From assembly GCA_964589575.1 (NCBI GenBank), contig CAZPSE010000006.1, positions 81-64,080 of the forward strand: a stretch of 64,000 bases of DNA. The letters are read 5' to 3'. How positions within the stretch are numbered: position 1 is the stretch's first letter; every line of letters starts with the position of its first letter. The stretch comes from an uncultured Gammaproteobacteria bacterium (GTDB lineage Bacteria; Pseudomonadota; Gammaproteobacteria; QNFE01; CAZPSE01). Below, in pieces: positions 75 to 55,903 of this stretch. Made by a program: the position numbers and the translations under genes. The notes under the pieces were generated by a model. It had not been told where the DNA came from. It did no database searches and saw only the letters and a program-made list of their open reading frames with translations.

Positions 75-1220
75 ATGAAATCAAAGTTAATTTTAGGAAA
101 TAGTTTATTAGTTATTGCTTCGGCACTTTATAGCTCAGCTACTTTTTCGTACAGTATAGAGATGACCAAAGTAGATGAAGTTGGCAAAACTGTCTCTATT
201 GGGGGAACGGTAGTACCTTATAAGGAAGTGACTTTGGCTGCACAAATGCCCGGTCGGGTACAATACATATTTGGTGAAGAAGGGGATAAAGCCAAAAAAG
301 GGAATGTCTTAATCGCTTTAGGCGATGACGCGTTACGCGCTAAACGTAGACAGGCTGTAGCTGGCTTAATACAAGCTGAAACAGCCCTTAAAAATGCACA
401 AGTGCAATACTCAAAAGAATTATGGTCACCCAAATCTGACGATATTAATGCCATGCCTGGTATGGGCATGCCGTCAATGTTTGATAAGTTTTTCACTAGA
501 AATGTAGGTAGCGCAATGGGTTATGGCGATAATGACTTAGATCGCCGTGCTGATTTATTTAATCAAAGCTCTAATGTTTCAAATGCGCGTTCTGTAGTTT
601 TGCAAGCTCAATCTAATATAGATCAATTGGATACAAAACTTCGTGATGCCAAATCTATTTCTGCATTTGATGGTGTTATTGTTAAAAAATTCGTAGAACT
701 GGGCGACACGGTACAACCTGGTACACCTTTAATTACAATTGCTCAAACAAAATTTTTAAGAATACGCGCAGAAATACCAGCACGCTTGGTTACAGGTTTA
801 GTACGTGGTGAATTTGTAAATGCACGCTTAGATGTTGGCAACACGCATGTTAAAGCTAGAATATCTCAAATTTATCCAGTTGCTGATGAACACAGGCATA
901 CCGTTACCGTTAAGTTTGACTTGCCAAAAGGCATACCTGGTGGGCCTGGCATGTATGCAGAAATTTCTATACCCGATATTAATGTAAAAGCTAAAGCGTT
1001 CCCAATTATTTCCAAAAAAGCGATTATTAATAAAGGTTCGTTGCCTTATGTTTATATCCTTAATGACAAAGAAGGAGCGGAACTGAGAATAGTTAGAACA
1101 GGATCAGATGCTGAAAAAGGTTATATTACCGTTTTATCAGGTATCAAAGAAGGAGAAAAAGTTATAGTGAATCCTCCCATAGATATTAAACCCGGTTGGA
1201 TGCCAAAAAAAGAAGGCTAA
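75..1220 (+). CDS. RND efflux periplasmic adaptor (membrane fusion protein, HlyD/AcrA-like)
   Basis: 381-aa ORF. It has an N-terminal signal/anchor followed by coiled-coil, lipoyl-like and beta-barrel segments typical of MFPs. It sits directly upstream of, and is co-oriented with, the RND pump gene. Confidence 0.8.
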   Translation: MKSKLILGNSLLVIASALYSSATFSYSIEMTKVDEVGKTVSIGGTVVPYKEVTLAAQMPGRVQYIFGEEGDKAKKGNVLIALGDDALRAKRRQAVAGLIQAETALKNAQVQYSKELWSPKSDDINAMPGMGMPSMFDKFFTRNVGSAMGYGDNDLDRRADLFNQSSNVSNARSVVLQAQSNIDQLDTKLRDAKSISAFDGVIVKKFVELGDTVQPGTPLITIAQTKFLRIRAEIPARLVTGLVRGEFVNARLDVGNTHVKARISQIYPVADEHRHTVTVKFDLPKGIPGGPGMYAEISIPDINVKAKAFPIISKKAIINKGSLPYVYILNDKEGAELRIVRTGSDAEKGYITVLSGIKEGEKVIVNPPIDIKPGWMPKKEG

Positions 1221-1263
1221 ATAAAACACACACACTATAAACCATTACTAAAGACAAGAGACT

Positions 1264-4200
1264 ATGTCAGATAAAAATCACGATACCGAAGAACTTGGTT
1301 TAGCTGGAAAACTTGCTAAAAACTTTATACATTCACCCTTATCACCGCTACTACTCATTGTTTCCTTAGCCGTTGGAATTATTGGTTTAATATTAACACC
1401 ACGTCAAGAAGACCCGCAAATTTCGGTACCTATGGTCGATATTTTTGTTGGTTATCCTGGTGCATCAGCTGATCAAGTTTCAACCTTAGTTGCCGTTCCA
1501 TTAGAACGAATGATGAGCGAAATAACAGGTGTTCGGCATGTTTATTCTGCCTCTCAAAGAGAAATGGGAATGGTGACCGTGCAATTTGAAGTAGGCCAAG
1601 AAATGGAAAAATCCATTTTTAAAGTTTATGACAAAATTCATTCTAATAAGGATGTTATGCCCGCAGGCGTACAAGGTGCTTTAATTAAACCAAAAGCCGT
1701 TGACGATGTACCAGCTGTTACTTTAACGTTGTGGTCAGAAGAGGTTGCTGATTTTGAATTGCGCTTGTTAGCATTGGATGTTTTACAAAAAATAAAAGAA
1801 ATACCAGACACAAGCGCAAGTTTTATAGTGGGTGGTCGTTCTAAACAGGTACGTATAGAACCCTTGCCAGAAAAACTAGCAGGTTACGGTGTAACTTTAG
1901 GTGCCCTAGCTAATACCATCAAAACAGCCAATTCAGAAATGGGAGTAGGCACGGTCGAAGCATGGGATTCATCATTTAGTATTTATACAGGGTCGTTTTT
2001 AACTAACGCAGCAGACATTGAAAAACTAGTCGTAGCCATTATTAATGGTGCGCCCGTATATATGAGTGATGTTGCCAATGTAATAGATGGCCCAGCTGAA
2101 ACCAAAAATTTAGTACATTACTATACAGGTAACGCCTATCAAGGTGATGCGAACCTCGATATGGGCGCGCCAGCGGTTACAATCGCCATAGCCAAGAAAA
2201 AAGGTAGTAATGGTGTCACCGTAGCACAAAACATTTTAGATAGAGTTGAGTCATTAAAAGGCACGCTAATACCCAATAACGTAATGGTAGAAATCACCCG
2301 TAATTACGGTGAAAGTGCAGACAAAAAAGTAAGTTCATTGCTTCAAAAATTATTTATTGCCACTGGCATCGTCGTATTGTTGGTTTGGGGGTTTTTAGGT
2401 ATTCAAGCTGCAACAGTTGTTTTAATTGTCATCCCCGTTGTAATATTAATAACTGTTTTTGCTGCGCTAGTACTGGGTTTGACTATTGATAGGGTTAGTT
2501 TATTCGCACTAATTTTCTCAATTGGAATACTAGTAGATGATGCTATTGTTGTGGTCGAAAATATCTATCGGCGATGGTTAATGCGAGGTGAAATTCATAC
2601 AGGAACATCTATAGATGCTGTTAGAGAAGTAGGAAACCCTACTATTTTAGCGACCTTTACAGTTATAGCAGCGTTAATGCCAATGGGTATGGTACGCGGA
2701 ATGATGGGTCCGTATATGAGCCCGATTCCTATATTGGGTTCAGTAGCCATGATATTTTCATTGTTTGCTGCATTTACTTTTACGCCTTGGTTGGTAATGC
2801 GTATAAAACCTTCTATGAAGCGTTTAAAACAAATGGAAGCAAAAGAGCATAAACAAGAAGTGTTTTATGAAAAATTGTATCGCTCAATTTTGATTCCATT
2901 AATTTCAAGCAAAGCAAAAGGGCGTCTATTTTTAACATTCTTGTTTGTCTTGTTTTTTGCAAGTTGTTCTTTGTTTTACTTTAATGTTGTAAAAGTAAAA
3001 ATGTTGCCATTAGACAATAAGCCAGAATTTAACGTGGTTATTAATTTCCCAGCGGGTACGGCACTACCTGTTACCGAAAATTTAATACGAAAGCTGTCTC
3101 ATAAAATAAAACAAATTGAAGAAGTAACCGCTTTGCAAACTTATGCAGGCACCGCATCGCCTTATAACTTTAATGGTTTGGTACGTCATACTTATTTACG
3201 AGAATCACCTTGGCAGGGCGATATACAAGTTCAGTTAACCGATAAAGAAACGAGAGAGCGCACAAGTCACGAAATAGCCGTAGCTGTACGCGCCATGGTT
3301 AGGCCTATTGTTAAAGCTTATGGTGCAAAAGTACAAGTAGTAGAAATGCCACCAGGTCCTCCAGTACTTCAATCTGTTGTTGCAGAAGTTTATGGACCCA
3401 CAGATGAAATTAGGCGACAAGTCGCGACAGATTTAACCGCTATGTTTGAAGAGGCTGAAAATTTAACAGATGTTGATAATTTAATGCAAAAAGAATATGA
3501 CGTTTGGCGTTTTGAAGTGAATACTGAAAAAGCAAACCGCCGTGGTGTTTCTGTTGAAGAAATTAATAAAAACTTGCTTATGGCAATGGGTGGTTTTGTT
3601 TTAGGCGACATTAAAGTAGGGCATGTATTAGAACCACGTGAAATTGTTTTACAAATACCCATGTCTGCAAGAGCAGAGTTTTCGAGAATAGGTACCTTGC
3701 CCATTATGAGTAGTCAAGGTTATACCATTCCACTTTCTGAACTGGGCGAATTTATAAAAGACAAACAAAATAAAATTATTTTCCATAAAGACTTAAGACC
3801 CGTAGAGTTTGTAACGGCAGAAGTTCAAGCACCATTACCTGCACCTGTATACGGCATGTTTGAGGTGGGCGATAAGTTGGACGATTATACCGCACCAGAT
3901 GGTGTTAAATTGTCGGGCGAATGGTTTGGCCCACCTGCAACATCGGATGTTTCAGGGTTTGAGTGGACAGGGGAGTGGACAGTAACCTTTGAAACATTTA
4001 GAGACATGGGTATAGCATTTGGAGGCGCAATTTTATTAATTTATATGTTGGTGGTTTGGGAGTTCGGTAACTTCACATTGCCAGCTATCATTATTTCTCC
4101 AATTCCTTTAACGTTAGTTGGTATCATTCCTGGTCACTGGATAATGGGGGCTGAGTTTACCGCAACATCAATGATTGGTTTCATTGCCTTGGCGGGGATA

Positions 4201-5031
4201 ATCGTCAGAAACTCGATATTAATTGTAGATTTTACCAATCAACGAGTTAGAGCTGGTGAAGAGTTAGTCGAGGCTGTGATTACATCTTGCAAAGTAAGAA
4301 CACGGCCAATTTTAATTACCGCTTTAGCTTTAATGGGCGGATCATTGGTTATTCTTGCTGATCCTATATTTCAAGGTATGGCAGTTTCATTGTTGTTTGG
4401 AATGTTTGTATCTACATTATTAACGCTTATTGTTATTCCATTAGGTTGTATTACTGCAAAGTCATCTTTTGTTTTTGATACTGACCCTGACAATGGAGGA
4501 TTTGGCGGAGGTGGACAAGTGTTGCCAAGCTCTACTCCTCCTAGTGATGCGCATGTATCTAAAGTAAAATCGTATGAACCCAGTATTATTGAAAAATTTA
4601 TTGGTTTGTTATCTATAATTGCTATATATATTGGGCTTTTATGGTCAATGTTAATGTCTATTATGCCCGCACCGATAAGAAACTTTTTTGAAAAAGTAAC
4701 AGGCTTTTTAGCCATTATTAAAATTTACTTAGGATTGTTGTTATCGCCTTTATTCGCCTTTTTTAAGTCTAAAGAGCCAGAGCCTACTGCTGTAAAAGCT
4801 CAAGTGCCTGTGCCTGCATCGACAAACACAGATACTAAGGCCAAAGAAGAAACTAAAGCCAAAGAAGACACTAAAGCCAAAGAAGACACTAAAGCCAAAG
4901 AAGACACTATTTCTAAAAAAAGCACATCGAAGAAAAAGGCTACTAGTAAAAAGAAAACAACATCAAGTAAAAAAACAACCAGCAAAAAAAATGTAAGAAG
5001 AGGGATTAAGCTTAAAAAAGATTTGGAGTAA
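1264..5031 (+). CDS. RND (AcrB/HAE-type) inner-membrane transporter with an atypical ~200-aa C-terminal extension and lysine-rich tail
   Basis: 1255 aa. The N-terminal TM1 plus large periplasmic loops and 12-TM architecture are recognisable as AcrB/CzcA family. After TM12 there are two extra hydrophobic segments and a TKAKED x4 repeat followed by an SKKK-rich tail. Confidence 0.85.
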   Translation: MSDKNHDTEELGLAGKLAKNFIHSPLSPLLLIVSLAVGIIGLILTPRQEDPQISVPMVDIFVGYPGASADQVSTLVAVPLERMMSEITGVRHVYSASQREMGMVTVQFEVGQEMEKSIFKVYDKIHSNKDVMPAGVQGALIKPKAVDDVPAVTLTLWSEEVADFELRLLALDVLQKIKEIPDTSASFIVGGRSKQVRIEPLPEKLAGYGVTLGALANTIKTANSEMGVGTVEAWDSSFSIYTGSFLTNAADIEKLVVAIINGAPVYMSDVANVIDGPAETKNLVHYYTGNAYQGDANLDMGAPAVTIAIAKKKGSNGVTVAQNILDRVESLKGTLIPNNVMVEITRNYGESADKKVSSLLQKLFIATGIVVLLVWGFLGIQAATVVLIVIPVVILITVFAALVLGLTIDRVSLFALIFSIGILVDDAIVVVENIYRRWLMRGEIHTGTSIDAVREVGNPTILATFTVIAALMPMGMVRGMMGPYMSPIPILGSVAMIFSLFAAFTFTPWLVMRIKPSMKRLKQMEAKEHKQEVFYEKLYRSILIPLISSKAKGRLFLTFLFVLFFASCSLFYFNVVKVKMLPLDNKPEFNVVINFPAGTALPVTENLIRKLSHKIKQIEEVTALQTYAGTASPYNFNGLVRHTYLRESPWQGDIQVQLTDKETRERTSHEIAVAVRAMVRPIVKAYGAKVQVVEMPPGPPVLQSVVAEVYGPTDEIRRQVATDLTAMFEEAENLTDVDNLMQKEYDVWRFEVNTEKANRRGVSVEEINKNLLMAMGGFVLGDIKVGHVLEPREIVLQIPMSARAEFSRIGTLPIMSSQGYTIPLSELGEFIKDKQNKIIFHKDLRPVEFVTAEVQAPLPAPVYGMFEVGDKLDDYTAPDGVKLSGEWFGPPATSDVSGFEWTGEWTVTFETFRDMGIAFGGAILLIYMLVVWEFGNFTLPAIIISPIPLTLVGIIPGHWIMGAEFTATSMIGFIALAGIIVRNSILIVDFTNQRVRAGEELVEAVITSCKVRTRPILITALALMGGSLVILADPIFQGMAVSLLFGMFVSTLLTLIVIPLGCITAKSSFVFDTDPDNGGFGGGGQVLPSSTPPSDAHVSKVKSYEPSIIEKFIGLLSIIAIYIGLLWSMLMSIMPAPIRNFFEKVTGFLAIIKIYLGLLLSPLFAFFKSKEPEPTAVKAQVPVPASTNTDTKAKEETKAKEDTKAKEDTKAKEDTISKKSTSKKKATSKKKTTSSKKTTSKKNVRRGIKLKKDLE
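4834..4905 (+). repeat. 4 x 18-bp perfect/near-perfect in-frame tandem repeat (actaaRgccaaagaagaM) encoding TKAKEE/TKAKED
   Basis: Read directly in the sequence. Units start at 4834, 4852, 4870 and 4888. Confidence 0.95.
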
Positions 5032-5044
5032 AAAGTGAATTATT

Positions 5045-5503
5045 ATGAAGACTAATTTATTCTTATTAAGCTTTAGTTTAATAAGTTTTATAGCAACTGC
5101 AGATACTAATATAAAGCCGCCTCCAGGGCCTTATATTAGTAAGTCTATGGCGATGAAGTTACAACAGGTATTAGAAACAACTGTAGATGCGCCACATTTT
5201 AATTCGTACCCAGAGTTTGAAAATTCAAATTCAAACAAGCTAATAATCATTCCTCAAGCAAAACTTCAAAAACCGGTTATAAGCAAAAATATACAAAAAG
5301 AGGATGCTTTTCAAAAGTATCCCCGTATTAATCAACAAAATTTAACCGAACCATTAGTGATTAAAAATAAAAACATAATGTATGATCAAAAGACGAATGA
5401 TAATACAAAAAATTTTTGGGATGTTGATCCTAAATTTTTACACGATGAAAATAAAGAATCACATTTACCCAAAAATAAGTTTTTAGAATATCCACCTCTA
5501 TAA
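5045..5503 (+). CDS. Secreted protein of unknown function (signal peptide)
   Basis: 152 aa with a hydrophobic N-terminal signal. It starts 14 bp after the RND stop, and its stop overlaps the next start (taATG). I recognise no conserved motifs. Confidence 0.5.
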   Translation: MKTNLFLLSFSLISFIATADTNIKPPPGPYISKSMAMKLQQVLETTVDAPHFNSYPEFENSNSNKLIIIPQAKLQKPVISKNIQKEDAFQKYPRINQQNLTEPLVIKNKNIMYDQKTNDNTKNFWDVDPKFLHDENKESHLPKNKFLEYPPL

Positions 5504-6234
5504 TGAAAAAAAACGTATTAAACTTATTATTTTTAACGTTACTTTTTAGTGATAACGCATTTTCTATAAGCTATGAAGCAACAGCGATGTCAAAAACCAA
5601 TAACCTTACGTCAAGCAGTAAAGTTTTTGTAAAAGATAATAAAGTTAGAATTGAGTATGCAGCCAATGATGAAAAGTTTATTCAAATTAGTAATCCTTCA
5701 AAAAAACGCAGTTGGGTTTTATTAGAAAAAGATAAAACTTACATTGAGTCTAAAACTTCGATGGATCTTTTGCCTAAATCGTTAAAAATAAACTTAAAAA
5801 AACTGTGTAAGCCTAAAAATATAAAATGTTTTAAAGGCAAAGAAAAGTGGATAAATGGAAAAAAAACCCGAGAATGGAAAATTGAACTGTATAAAAACAA
5901 ATCAAAGACGGTTTCTTATCTTTGGGTCGATAGTGTATCTGGCATACCTATCAAACAAAAATATGCTGATGGCAGTTATACAGAGTTAAAGTTTATTAAA
6001 AATGAATTGGTAAATAATCGAAAAACACAAAAGTGGCAATTAACTTTGGTAAATAGGCTAAAACAAAAAATACATGTTTATCAGTGGTTTGATCCTAAAC
6101 TTAATTTAACAATAAAAGAACTTTATCCTGATAATTCTGTTAAAGAACTAAAAAATATTAAAATAAAAAAACTTAAAGATAGTCTGTTTACGCTACCTAA
6201 AGGTTATGTAAAAAATACTCAGTTAAATAATTAA
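5503..6234 (+). CDS. Secreted/periplasmic protein, possibly LolA-like fold, unknown function
   Basis: 243 aa with a signal peptide. It is a lysine-rich beta-type sequence and is translationally coupled to the upstream ORF. Confidence 0.45.
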   Translation: MKKNVLNLLFLTLLFSDNAFSISYEATAMSKTNNLTSSSKVFVKDNKVRIEYAANDEKFIQISNPSKKRSWVLLEKDKTYIESKTSMDLLPKSLKINLKKLCKPKNIKCFKGKEKWINGKKTREWKIELYKNKSKTVSYLWVDSVSGIPIKQKYADGSYTELKFIKNELVNNRKTQKWQLTLVNRLKQKIHVYQWFDPKLNLTIKELYPDNSVKELKNIKIKKLKDSLFTLPKGYVKNTQLNN

Positions 6235-6255
6235 AATAATAGGAATAGGTAATAT

Positions 6256-6885
6256 ATGGTTACTGTAATAGGAAACTTAAAAGGCGGAACAGGTAAAAGT
6301 ACAGTTACCTTTAACCTTGCAATTTGGTTATTAGCATCCGATAAAGATGCGGTTATTTATGATTTGGACCCACAACAAACACTGAGTGATGTAGCAGAAG
6401 TTCGCAAAGATGAAAATATACAACCCGCTATTAAAGTAAAAAAGACCTTATCTACTATAAAAAAAGATATTGAAGATGGTAAAGAAATTTTAATAGACAT
6501 AGGCGTGTCTAACATGACCGCTGTGAAAAAAGCGATTGCTTTAGCTGACAGAGTGGTTGTGCCTATTCAACCTAGTCAGGCGGATATTTGGGCGACTCAA
6601 CGGTTTTTAAAAGTGATTAAAGAGGCTGCTGGAAATAGAAAAATTGAAGTATTGGGTTTTGTTAATAGAGCCGATACGCATCACGCTGTGCGAGAAACAG
6701 CAGAAACCGAAGAAGCCATTCAGTACTTACCAGGCATTAAACATTTGGACGTACGTTTGTATCAAAGAACGGCTTATAGACGTTCTTTTAGTGAAGGCTT
6801 GGCAGTTTTTGAGATGGGTTTATCATCTAAAGCGGCTAAAGAAGTCATGAAATTTTCTCACTTACTTTATAAAGACGTCAAGTAA
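6256..6885 (+). CDS. ParA/MinD-family P-loop ATPase (orphan, no ParB)
   Basis: Has the deviant Walker A GNLKGGTGKST at the N-terminus. At 209 aa it is small, like ParF/Soj-type ATPases. Confidence 0.75.
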   Translation: MVTVIGNLKGGTGKSTVTFNLAIWLLASDKDAVIYDLDPQQTLSDVAEVRKDENIQPAIKVKKTLSTIKKDIEDGKEILIDIGVSNMTAVKKAIALADRVVVPIQPSQADIWATQRFLKVIKEAAGNRKIEVLGFVNRADTHHAVRETAETEEAIQYLPGIKHLDVRLYQRTAYRRSFSEGLAVFEMGLSSKAAKEVMKFSHLLYKDVK

Positions 6886-6886
6886 A

Positions 6887-7414
6887 ATGGAAAGTATTTT
6901 TAAGTTTTTTTTGGGTAAATTAATCTTTTTAGTTTTTTTAGGGCTAATTGCTTACATCGTTGTGTTTAAAGAGAATATAGTTTCTGAATTTACAAAATAT
7001 CAACAATCTAGCAAAGAGCTTGTTATAACCAAAGCTGAAGTAAAAACGCCTAATAAATTAGTTTTTGTCAATAAAGTTGATATTGAACCTTCACCCAAAG
7101 CGACTTTAAATACAGCTAGATTACTTTTTCTGGATAAAAACTATTCAGCATCAATTAATGAATATAAACGGTTGATTAAAACCAATAAGTCTAATGTTGA
7201 CTATCACGGAGAATTAGCCAATGTGCTTTATGGCACCGGTTTAATAGATGAAGCTGTAAAAGAATTTTATTTGACAGCCGAGCTTTTAATAGAACAAAAT
7301 GACTTATTTAGAGTCCAACGAATTCAAAATGTCTTGTCTACTTTAGATGAAGAAAAATCCAAAAAAATATTAAAAGACATTACTAATGCACGAGGCATTA
7401 ATAAAGAACTTTAA
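6887..7414 (+). CDS. Membrane-anchored protein with TPR-like helical repeats
   Basis: 175 aa. One N-terminal TM helix (LIFLVFLGLIAYIVVF) is followed by helical repeat-like sequence. It starts 2 bp after the ParA-like gene. Confidence 0.45.
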   Translation: MESIFKFFLGKLIFLVFLGLIAYIVVFKENIVSEFTKYQQSSKELVITKAEVKTPNKLVFVNKVDIEPSPKATLNTARLLFLDKNYSASINEYKRLIKTNKSNVDYHGELANVLYGTGLIDEAVKEFYLTAELLIEQNDLFRVQRIQNVLSTLDEEKSKKILKDITNARGINKEL

Positions 7415-7431
7415 ACTTAATAGAGAAAATA

Positions 7432-8928
7432 ATGTTTAATAAACCCAGCCAAGAAATAGAAGAAAAACTAAATAATTTAGTTACTCATCTAAAAGAAGAA
7501 AACCCAATATTAATTGAAGTAGTTGATGATTTTAGATCAATAGACTTAGTAGGCCGAAGATTAGGGCTAATAACTGCGGATGAATCGTATACTGCTAAAA
7601 TTCCTTGGTGGCCATTGATTTCGATTTTAGGCACATTTTCTTCTGGTAAATCTACGTTTATTAATGATTTTATGGGTAGGACACTACAGCGATCGGGTAA
7701 TCAAGCTGTAGATGATAAATTTACTGTGGTGTGTTACAGCGACAAAGAAGATGGGCGAGTATTACCTGGAATCGCTTTAGATGCTGATTTACGTTTTCCA
7801 TTTTTTAAAATGAGTGACGAAATTGACAAGGTAAGTGAAGGAGAAGGACGACGTATTGATTCTTATTTACAATTAAAAACGACCACCTCAGAAATTATGA
7901 AAGGCAAAATTTTAATTGATTCGCCTGGCTTTGATGCAGATGCTCAGCGAACATCTACATTAAAAATTACCGATCATATTATAGATTTGTCTGACTTAGT
8001 TTTAGTGTTTTTTGATGCACGCCACCCAGAACCGGGTGCAATGCAAGATACATTAGAACATTTGGTTGGTAATACCATTCATCGTCCAGATTCAAACAAG
8101 TTTTTATTTATCTTAAACCAAATTGATACAACAGCGAGAGAGAATAACCCCGAAGATGTTGTAGGTGCATGGCAGCGCGCGTTATCTCAAAAAGGTTTAA
8201 CAGCTGGAAGGTTTTATTGTATTTACAATGAAAAAGCCTCTGTGCCGATAGAGGACGATACATTAAGAGCGCGTTTTAAACAGAAAAAAGATGAAGACTT
8301 AGGCGACATTATGGACCGAATTCATCAAGTAGAAGTAGAACGTTCTTATAGAATTGTCGGTTCATTAGAACAAATAGCGCAAGATATAAAAGAAGTGCAT
8401 GTTCCTAATATAAAAGGCTACCTTAATAGTTGGTCTAAAAAAGTAATAACCTCAGATTTTATTTTGTATGCTCTTATTATTATTGCTTGTTTATACCTTT
8501 CTATAAGTAATGGTTACTGGAATGGGTTGAGTTTAAGTGTTCCATTTTTTAATGAACTGGGCATGGCATTAAAAGGCTTAGTTGTTTTTATGGTCTTTTT
8601 TGTTTTAGCGGGTATTCACTTTATGAATCGCTCGATAATGGTTCGGTGGGTCAATAAAACGATTGTAAAAAATGGTGATGAGCAGTATCAGCGAGCGTTT
8701 AAGAAGAACACGGTTTTTTGGCGAAGTATATTTAGAGATAACCCAGTAGGCTGGAGAAGGAACAGTAAAAAACGTTTAAAAACAATTATTTCTAATACGT
8801 CTAAGTTTGTACAAAATTTAAATAATGAATTTACTAATCCATCTGGCAAAGTTGCAGAAGCTACTGCGCAAGTGGTTGAAAAAACTACTGCGGTTGAAAA
8901 TACAGAAGTAAAAGAAGCAACTAAATAA
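7432..8928 (+). CDS. Dynamin-family/large P-loop GTPase with C-terminal double-TM anchor
   Basis: G1 GTFSSGKSTFIN, G3 DSPG and an NQID G4-like motif. Two hydrophobic helices lie at about aa 340-400, followed by a basic C-terminal tail. This is the last gene before a strong terminator. Confidence 0.6.
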   Translation: MFNKPSQEIEEKLNNLVTHLKEENPILIEVVDDFRSIDLVGRRLGLITADESYTAKIPWWPLISILGTFSSGKSTFINDFMGRTLQRSGNQAVDDKFTVVCYSDKEDGRVLPGIALDADLRFPFFKMSDEIDKVSEGEGRRIDSYLQLKTTTSEIMKGKILIDSPGFDADAQRTSTLKITDHIIDLSDLVLVFFDARHPEPGAMQDTLEHLVGNTIHRPDSNKFLFILNQIDTTARENNPEDVVGAWQRALSQKGLTAGRFYCIYNEKASVPIEDDTLRARFKQKKDEDLGDIMDRIHQVEVERSYRIVGSLEQIAQDIKEVHVPNIKGYLNSWSKKVITSDFILYALIIIACLYLSISNGYWNGLSLSVPFFNELGMALKGLVVFMVFFVLAGIHFMNRSIMVRWVNKTIVKNGDEQYQRAFKKNTVFWRSIFRDNPVGWRRNSKKRLKTIISNTSKFVQNLNNEFTNPSGKVAEATAQVVEKTTAVENTEVKEATK

Positions 8929-8933
8929 AGCCT

Positions 8934-9021
8934 AAAAGCCCCTAAATCGTCGACCCCTTGCTTATTAGAAGTTGAAAAACCCCTAATAAATAAGCAAGGG
9001 GTCGACGATTTAGGGGCTTTT
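8934..9021. terminator. Perfect 33-bp-arm palindrome forming a long hairpin followed by a T-run; it embeds two inverted copies of the GTCGACCCCTTGC repeat
   Basis: aaaagcccctaaatcgtcgaccccttgcttatt ...loop... aataagcaaggggtcgacgatttaggggctttttt. Confidence 0.85.
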
Positions 9022-9092
9022 TTATGACGACAATATTTTATTAATATAAAATACCATGCTTAAAAATTAAAGCACAACACAAAGGTAATGTA

Positions 9093-16603: not shown

Positions 16604-16794
16604 TTTGTATTTATATAGTTGAAATAAGTTGTATTTTTAGGCTGTTTTTGGTATAAATGCGCCTGCTTTGAAAGAGTGGTTCTTTTAAACAAAAATTCTC
16701 ACACGTAGTCAACATTAATCACGGGTGCTTTTATTAATTTAAAAAGTTGTGATTATGTTACGTGGACGTCTAACCCAATTCTATAGGAATTATT

Positions 16795-55826: not shown

Positions 55827-55903
55827 TGGCGCGCCCGGAAGGATTCGAACCTCCGACACCTTAGTTCGTAGCCAAGTACTCTATCCAGCTGAGCTACGGG
55901 CGC
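55827..55903 (-). tRNA. tRNA-Arg (anticodon ACG)
   Basis: Reverse complement is GCGCCCGTAGCTCAGCTGGATAGAGTACTTGGCTACGAACTAAGGTGTCGGAGGTTCGAATCCTTCCGGGCGCGCCA. It forms a cloverleaf with a 7-bp acceptor stem, a CUACGAA anticodon loop and an encoded CCA end. It closely matches E. coli tRNA-Arg(ACG). Confidence 0.92.

Follow-up and report, generated by a model that had tools for sequence, protein, structure and literature searches.

Seven genes in a 64,000-nucleotide stretch of DNA from an uncultured gammaproteobacterium (GenBank assembly GCA_964589575.1, contig CAZPSE010000006.1, positions 81 to 64,080 of the forward strand; this whole stretch is hereafter called the window) encode a resistance-nodulation-division (RND) pump with its membrane fusion protein (MFP), two small secreted proteins, an ATPase of the ParA/MinD family (hereafter ParA), a transmembrane (TM) protein with a tetratricopeptide repeat (TPR), and a membrane-anchored dynamin-like protein (DLP). 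We find that these seven genes very probably form one conserved functional unit, and that the RND permease carries a long C-terminal tail whose near-invariant terminal motif, RRGI(R/K)LK, tracks the presence of the ParA and DLP genes. The explanation that we consider best, and in which we place moderate confidence, is that the cluster is an envelope system, conserved across species, that centers on an unusual RND exporter, with the tail of the pump serving as a tag for ParA and the DLP acting at the same sites. A sequence-only reading had called seven co-oriented open reading frames in this part of the window, and each was found exactly where it had been placed, in the following order.

75-1220, plus strand: MFP gene (381 amino acids, aa), the periplasmic adaptor of the RND pump
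1264-5031, plus strand: RND permease gene (1255 aa), with an HAE1-like core at aa 1-1060 and then a 195-aa C-terminal extension
5045-5503, plus strand: gene for a 152-aa secreted disordered protein
5503-6234, plus strand: gene for a 243-aa secreted periplasmic protein with a predicted LolA fold (DUF4412-like)
6256-6885, plus strand: ParA/MinD-family ATPase gene (209 aa, ParF-like)
6887-7414, plus strand: gene for a bitopic TM-TPR protein (175 aa)
7432-8928, plus strand: DLP gene (498 aa), a membrane-anchored NTPase of the dynamin superfamily
8934-9021, plus strand: intrinsic-terminator-like hairpin, followed by a T run, that closes the cluster ahead of glyA (9093)

Profile searches against Pfam and NCBIfam confirmed all of the family assignments that the sequence-only reading had made (RND pump, ParA-like, TPR and dynamin-like), and both small secreted proteins have N-termini that read as signal peptides. 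The gaps between the genes, described as 0-22 bp, hold for five of the junctions but not for that between the MFP and RND genes, where 43 nt intervene (in gene order the distances are 43, 13, -1, that is, an overlap, 21, 1 and 17 nt). Similarly, what had been described as an 88-bp perfect palindrome does have two perfect 33-nt arms (8934-8966 and 8989-9021), but a 22-nt loop separates them. As RNA this hairpin has a folding energy of -61.3 kcal/mol (z = -14.4 relative to shuffled sequences) and is followed by a U run, and it occurs only once within the window. Consensus scans of the cluster found no convincing internal terminator on the plus strand, and matches to promoter-like sites at chance level. 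From the sequence, it is plausible that the seven genes constitute a single transcription unit.

The genes are not chance neighbors, a possibility that had initially been left standing: homologues co-occur elsewhere in searches anchored on the DLP, on the RND permease and on ParA, and the cluster was recovered in dozens of species-level genomes as well as in metagenome contigs, mostly from sulfur-oxidising Gammaproteobacteria. The DLP-anchored count was restricted to species-representative genomes in which 9 kb or more of sequence lies upstream of the DLP gene; here MFP, RND and ParA genes were also present at 41 of 55 loci, and the encoded orthologues were 43-59% (MFP), 52-69% (RND) and 44-60% (ParA) identical to the window proteins. 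Two gene orders were apparent: 16 of these loci are co-oriented as in the window, and at 25 the DLP gene diverges from an operon that runs h131-MFP-RND-...-ParA (h131 being an additional gene described below). That the linkage is kept through rearrangement into two orders argues for selection, and not shared ancestry alone. The ParA-anchored search found the full cluster in three of three long contigs, the RND-anchored search of metagenomes recovered the cluster again, and ParA together with the DLP but without the pump was never seen on any contig with enough flanking sequence. All-against-all clustering of the open reading frames in the loci gave a consensus order of h131, MFP, RND, one or two secreted disordered proteins, the LolA-like protein, ParA, a TM-TPR and/or a TM-DUF302 protein, a second additional component that we call f7, and the DLP. 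Across many families the cluster is kept in chromosomal housekeeping contexts.

The feature that most clearly sets the pump apart is its C-terminal extension, in which three parts can be distinguished.

4579-4767, plus strand: a further pair of hydrophobic helices beyond TM12 (aa 1106-1138 and 1145-1168, from a hydropathy scan)
4768-4995, plus strand: Lys/Thr/Ser-rich low-complexity linker with TKAKE repeats and then SKKK repeats, resembling histone H1/HC2
4996-5016, plus strand: RRGIKLK motif, the pump ending RRGIKLKKDLE before its stop codon

The two helices look like a duplication of one segment, which is conserved in orthologues as MLFYxxRGIFLLxGQ, and many orthologue tails have a single hydrophobic segment of ~32 aa in their place. 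In the window the two helices probably form a membrane hairpin that holds the tail in the cytoplasm; we read the tail as cytoplasmic because known RND C-termini are cytoplasmic, because there are two extra helices, and because the tail is basic (25 Lys and Arg versus 11 Asp and Glu in the last 75 aa). In orthologues the linker is 150-300 aa long, hypervariable and usually rich in Lys, Ala and Pro, and the HC2 model of Pfam matches the tail at locus L003. Repeat expansion appears to drive the evolution of the linker, whereas the motif at the end does not change. RRGI(R/K)LK sits within the last 7-20 residues of the pump; RND C-terminal tails were recovered from 48 DLP-anchored loci, and these contain it. 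Some linkers contain lineage-specific perfect repeats, (EP)n at L018 and (KEIEA)n at L024, and in a subgroup of pumps (L104, L158 and L100) a tail of ~200 aa ends in the variant (R)RQGVQLK or RRGVQLK. Separately, the RRGIR of the pump fits the RxxxR pattern known from cyclic di-GMP-binding PilZ domains, which may be a coincidence.

The RND-anchored sample was not selected for the DLP. Where its loci extend 6 kb or more downstream, both ParA and DLP genes were found nearby for 12 of 13 motif-positive pumps and for none of 8 motif-negative pumps (Fisher p = 4e-5), although these counts are not phylogenetically independent. RND-anchored pumps of similar identity (~55-60%) divide into tail-bearing and tail-less forms, and in a rough neighbor-joining tree of 96 pump cores the tail-less pumps fall into at least three separate groups, which argues that the association of the tail with ParA and the DLP does not reflect one historical split. 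The tail-less close relatives are plain MFP-RND pairs among housekeeping genes. Because a conserved insertion at the tip of the adaptor and, in some loci, a secreted protein with a PPPxGPY motif (both described below) are kept beside tail-less pumps, these two features would seem to belong to the pump family, and the tail to the coupling with ParA and the DLP. We think it fairly probable that the tail physically couples the pump to the ParA/DLP module. The alternative is that two modules are merely syntenic, with an ordinary efflux pump for toxic compounds or metals, plus periplasmic accessories, lying beside an uncoupled ParA/TPR/DLP module for membrane maintenance or division. Each half does exist alone, as tail-less MFP-RND pairs and as DLP genes without RND or ParA, and the adaptor-tip motif and PPPxGPY proteins accompany tail-less pumps too; however, this alternative sits poorly with the covariation of tail and motif with ParA and the DLP across at least three tail-less groups, with a linkage that outlasts rearrangement into two gene orders, and with the failure to see ParA and the DLP without a pump where flanking sequence suffices. 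We therefore regard it as unlikely that the two halves are uncoupled.

Its co-occurrence with ParA and the DLP makes the RRGI(R/K)LK motif a candidate peptide for docking onto, or activating, the ParA-like ATPase, if not the DLP. Partners of ParA/MinD proteins generally act via positively charged disordered peptides (PMC10241942, PMC11407121), and it is because basic disordered partner peptides do so in other such systems that we propose that the motif engages ParA. In the mechanism that we favor, the MFP-RND pump would extract a hydrophobic, lipid-like substrate and deliver it to the LolA-fold carrier in the periplasm; for aryl-polyene clusters, an RND protein paired with a LolA-like protein has been proposed to export lipid to the outer membrane (PMC8253772). 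The long cytoplasmic tail would be a flexible tether, with the basic motif at its end binding ParA and probably also stimulating its ATPase activity, and pump assemblies would thereby be placed or spaced along the cell and not left diffusing. The EHD-like DLP, with its two TM helices, would shape or stabilise the inner membrane at pump sites, and in fuller clusters f7 and h131 would also take part. The specific details of the ParA tag and of lipid export are tentative, possible rather than probable. A more elaborate version, which we consider doubtful, is that such pumps are a new class of cargo for ParA/MinD ATPases and that the EHD-like DLP, with the short intramembrane hairpin of the pump, builds a specialised inner-membrane domain or an inner-outer contact site, at which a nucleoid-positioned, C-terminally tagged transporter hands a hydrophobic product (lipid or sulfur-related) to the LolA-fold carrier; this would be a bacterial counterpart of an export site defined by membrane curvature. 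The sequence-only reading had suggested a vesicle or export-positioning system; the positioning part of that suggestion gains support from the tail and its motif, whereas the vesicle part is not supported.

Several observations weigh against the explanation that we favor. The DLP gene occurs without RND or ParA genes within 10 kb at 14 of the 55 loci (in Granulosicoccus, for example, it lies beside a rhomboid gene and that for RNase E), with orthologue similarity equal to that at the other loci, and so the DLP has a role that does not require adjacency. One motif-positive locus (L137) has no ParA or DLP gene nearby, and at L104, one of the loci with a variant motif, h131 lies upstream but ParA and the DLP are absent within 10 kb; either the partners of the L104 pump are encoded elsewhere or its tail serves another use. 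Where orthologues have a single ~32-aa hydrophobic segment, this could in principle be one TM helix, and the tail would then be periplasmic. The partner of the motif could be the DLP or another protein instead of ParA, and known partner peptides of ParA/MinD systems are N-terminal whereas the motif of the pump is C-terminal. Moreover, the LolA fold also serves roles other than transport (as in RseB), and the window cluster is without two components that are common elsewhere, f7 and h131; an h131 gene could lie just upstream of the start of the window.

The core of the pump has the full-length 12-TM architecture of its family, including two large periplasmic loops, with aa 19-1060 of the RND permease matching ACR_tran of Pfam (E = 1e-140) over profile positions 3-1015 of 1021, and its nearest solved chains are TriC (6VEJ) and MdtB. 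In the sequence VDDAIVVVEN, D425 and D426 are invariant in 12 orthologues; this acidic pair of TM4 was matched to D407/D408 of AcrB by motif similarity, not by structural alignment. The permease does not reach any subfamily or equivalog model of NCBIfam (the best, RND_permease_2, scores 433.8 bits against a cut-off of 1250, and others score lower). The MFP scores 159 bits against the TIGR01730 cut-off of 94.9 and also matches HlyD_D23 and HlyD_3. At the tip of its alpha-hairpin the MFP has a family-specific conserved insertion (aa 115-142, nt 417-500, ELWSPKSDDINAMPGMGMPSMFDKFFTR), which is rich in Met, Gly, Pro and Phe and takes the form ELWSPxS..MPGMGMPxxFDxxFT in the window, at L133, L117, L134 and at many more loci; the insertion is also kept, as GGMGxPxxFDQxFT, beside tail-less pumps. 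In classical adaptors the hairpin tip contacts the outer-membrane channel. The cluster contains no outer-membrane factor gene, which the sequence-only reading had thought telling on the grounds that RND pumps normally pair with such a factor. That argument is a weak one, since many RND operons have no outer-membrane factor gene; the tail-less relatives of this pump are plain MFP-RND pairs.

Directly after the pump gene comes that of the 152-aa protein, which has PPPGPY at its mature N-terminus (nt 5117-5134), and a protein with a signal peptide and a P-x-GP[YF] motif recurs at this position, directly downstream of the pump, in 26 loci. These PPPxGPY proteins are a fast-evolving disordered family, some members of which accompany tail-less pumps. 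The window member is Asn/Lys/Pro-rich and not Gly/Tyr-rich, matches no Pfam or NCBIfam profile, and has no homologue detectable by BLAST. Conceivably, such proteins are what the pump exports: after Sec-dependent export, the PPPxGPY-tagged disordered proteins would be caught by the MFP-RND complex in the periplasm and expelled to the surface. This idea would account for the position of the motif-bearing protein after the pump and for the conserved, unusual hairpin tip of the MFP, and fast evolution would suit surface exposure, but we know of no RND pump that exports proteins, the cluster has no gene for an outer-membrane factor, and ParA, the DLP and the LolA-fold protein would all be left unexplained. 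We think protein export very improbable.

The match of the 243-aa protein to DUF4412 is borderline (21.2 bits against a cut-off of 21.6), and the model matches 4 of 10 orthologues, with a best E value of 9e-8. An AlphaFold2 (AF2) model built on a shallow alignment, the homologue search having given three sequences only, had a mean predicted local distance difference test score (pLDDT) of 84, with the other four models scoring lower. The top matches of this model in a Foldseek search of the PDB were LolA3, the LolA-superfamily protein NE2245, RseB, EPDR1 and LolA (E = 2e-6, TM-score ~0.4); a profile of the family matched no PDB sequence. As modelled, the 243-aa protein has the open beta-barrel of the LolA fold, and it probably carries a hydrophobic ligand. 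The suggestion that the two secreted proteins are dedicated cargo is weakly supported, the 243-aa protein being a predicted LolA-fold carrier rather than a cargo and the 152-aa protein being disordered. The GC content drops to 27-29% at 5000-6500 and 7000-7500, compared with ~38% elsewhere in the window, and these low-GC stretches coincide with the fast-evolving secreted-protein genes, the TPR gene and the beginning of the ParA gene.

Of the two components that are common in other clusters, h131 is a 131-aa cytoplasmic protein with 72-85% identity among loci, encoded just upstream of the adaptor (at L001, 9179-9574; L003, 9266-9661; and 28 other loci). It matches nothing in Pfam or NCBIfam, nor any PDB sequence in a profile search, and an impression by eye that it is SCP2-like was not supported by any search. 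The other, f7, is a TM-anchored coiled coil with Met/Asn heptads (MxxNIxx) and a weak match to DUF948 (L011, 9522-9965; L014, 16438-17004). It ends in RPMxFMxSFMPW, and FPFMPW or GMPSPW closes the secreted disordered proteins encoded alongside it and in related clusters (L011, 6104-7337; L021, 5612-6843), a likeness of C-terminal motifs that suggests a common periplasmic binding partner. A different possibility is that the cluster serves the biogenesis or positioning of some structure in the periplasm or envelope, for example sulfur globules or another inclusion or matrix. The variable, low-complexity secreted proteins would then be structural, and the role of ParA and the DLP would be to position and mold the membrane around the structure. 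The carriers are mostly sulfur-oxidising and globule-forming (Thiodiazotropha, Sedimenticola, Chromatiaceae, and tubeworm and clam symbionts), and the secreted proteins are disordered, fast-evolving and rich in aromatic residues and glycine (Tyr, Gly, Pro, Gln, Met), as well as sharing the FMPW-type C-terminal motif with f7. However, the correlation with lifestyle is anecdotal, no sequence link to known sulfur-globule proteins was found (no search aimed at one was made), a Methylococcales-labelled locus (L082) from a non-globule lineage also has the DLP, MFP and RND, and the secreted protein of the window departs from the Gly/Tyr-rich composition; a role in building such a structure is, in our estimation, improbable. 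In many loci of the divergent type (L001, 11541-13598, and ~30 others) genes for GAF-GGDEF and HDOD proteins adjoin the DLP gene, which may reflect synteny within a clade. When the divergent h131-DLP intergenic regions were searched for a shared regulatory motif, only words specific to individual clades emerged, and neither sigma-54 nor Fur nor CRP sites were found.

The DLP matches Dynamin_N of Pfam at 52.8 bits against a cut-off of 27 and has the following features.

7630-7653, plus strand: P-loop, GTFSSGKS, invariant
7918-7929, plus strand: DSPG (G3), invariant
8116-8127, plus strand: NQID (G4), with N229, Q230 and D232 invariant
8437-8643, plus strand: TM hairpin, hydrophobic helices at aa 336-362 and 372-404
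8830-8847, plus strand: conserved C-terminal FTNPSG

The sequence-only reading had described this protein as a dynamin-like GTPase with its own TM anchor. Hydropathy bears out the anchor, in the form of two membrane helices, and the G domain is of the dynamin type, but the use of GTP is uncertain, because NQID stands in place of the canonical (N/T)KxD guanine-specificity motif at G4 and the nearest structures are those of EHD ATPases. In an AF2 model (pLDDT 78) the DLP comprises a G domain, a helical bundle, the TM hairpin and C-terminal helices, and Foldseek ranked EHD4 and EHD2 first among PDB structures, followed by Campylobacter DLP1/2, mitofusins (MFN1/2), IniA and BDLP, with a probability of 1.0 to these folds and TM-scores of only 0.3-0.5. 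A PDB sequence search with the DLP found only EHDs, weakly; their PDB titles call them ATPases. Pfam finds no EH domain in the DLP, and its identity to solved DLPs is only 11-16%. Its homologues number in the thousands, and those of Sedimenticola, Thiodiazotropha, Chromatiales, Thiohalomonadaceae and several animal symbionts are 52-61% identical to it; the family is compact and highly conserved, with 730 members at E <= 1e-3 and 109 at E <= 1e-30, counted as 50%-identity cluster representatives among 1.8 billion proteins. We also considered a defense system of the LeoABC type or similar and rejected it, PADLOC giving only LeoA (E = 5.7e-4, 17 bits) and PtuA (E = 5e-4).

ParA has a deviant Walker A motif, NLKGGTGKST (nt 6274-6303), that is invariant in an alignment of 19 sequences, in which its other motifs are conserved too. 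It matches CbiA and AAA_31, and its nearest solved structure is ParF of TP228. The alignment reveals no C-terminal extension past the ParF-length fold that could be a membrane-targeting helix, and in this respect ParA is not MinD-like. No ParB, ParG or McdB-like partner gene is present in the cluster. The resemblance to ParF, a plasmid type, and the 27-29% GC of parts of the cluster might be taken to mean that the ParA gene is the remnant of a mobile element or of a plasmid partition cassette, beside an efflux operon by chance. However, chromosomal housekeeping contexts are conserved in many families, there is no ParB, integrase or replication gene, ParA falls under the cut-off of the plasmid-partition equivalog NF041546 (135.9 bits against 180), and no PADLOC system was found, and we consider this interpretation effectively refuted. 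The TPR protein has an N-terminal TM helix (aa 1-33, by hydropathy) and a C-terminal TPR unit; its TPR matches are weak in the window, but orthologues pass the TPR_19 cut-off. At other loci this position is occupied by a TM-TPR protein, a TM-DUF302 protein, or both.

The components of the cluster all belong to known superfamilies, whereas the literature that we searched contains no account of their combination, of the tail and motif that the pump carries, or of the DLP subfamily. In particular, full-text literature on bacterial dynamins, ParA, efflux, sulfur bacteria and symbionts, and EHD-like prokaryotic proteins yielded no published description of the cluster; two papers in which dynamins of sulfur bacteria come up do not discuss it. 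The pump resembles tripartite pumps of the HAE1 type (TriABC, MdtABC, AcrAB-TolC) in its full ACR_tran permease, in the DD pair of TM4, and in having a TIGR01730 adaptor encoded just upstream, but these pumps lack its 195-aa extension (up to ~300 aa in orthologues), the adaptor-tip insertion, and the genes for ParA, the DLP and the LolA-fold protein. ParF-ParG, McdA-McdB, PomXYZ, ParC-ParP and PpfA-TlpT likewise have a small ATPase with a deviant Walker A motif and no membrane-targeting helix, and the candidate partner here, like theirs, has a disordered, positively charged peptide; unlike those systems, the cluster has no ParB, ParG or McdB-like gene, and its candidate tag is C-terminal and belongs to a polytopic transporter, where theirs is N-terminal and belongs to a soluble adaptor. 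The cargos named in the ParA/MinD literature cited here do not include an RND pump. The DLP shares with other bacterial DLPs (BDLP, DynA, LeoA, IniA, Campylobacter DLP1/2) a Dynamin_N G domain followed by a helical bundle, and its membrane-inserted hairpin has parallels in mitofusin, atlastin and the paddle of BDLP; it is set apart from known DLPs and EHDs by its length of only 498 aa, its short helical region, the presence of true TM helices, the lack of an EH domain and NQID at G4. As in ApeM-ApeL-ApeN of aryl-polyene clusters, an RND gene lies beside that of a LolA-fold periplasmic protein (PMC8253772), but in contrast to the Ape and HpnN lipid exporters there are no biosynthetic genes in the cluster and no LolB-like gene was identified in it. 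The Ape model is itself a proposal and not a demonstrated mechanism. Unlike pumps of the MMPL/HpnN type, the pump is HAE1-like and has an MFP, and its match to HpnN (E = 4e-4) is far under the cut-off.

The cluster can be described as an RND exporter to which a module for positioning and remodelling has been added or, just as well, as a ParA/MinD system with a new type of cargo; we see a moderate chance that it is more distinct than this. If the coupling is real, a ParA-type ATPase would serve to place a membrane transporter, the list of ParA/MinD cargos would extend to envelope machines, with a C-terminal tag as an addition, and one of the many orphan bacterial DLPs would gain a defined set of genetic partners, making its function testable. 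The RRGIRLK tail, ParA and the DLP offer three precise experimental handles. Moreover, the cluster is kept in environmentally important sulfur-oxidising Gammaproteobacteria, including chemosynthetic animal symbionts, in which envelope and inclusion biology is poorly understood.

The surroundings of the cluster in the window are those of a core chromosome, with glyA, glnD, t44 RNA, bamA, guaBA, PBP1 and mfd, and ten large open reading frames outside the cluster are housekeeping genes. The t44 RNA lies at 16680-16774 on the plus strand; the Rfam model for this RNA represents a leader found upstream of rpsB. A single tRNA gene is found at 55830-55903 on the minus strand and, like the t44 RNA, is ordinary in a gammaproteobacterial chromosome.

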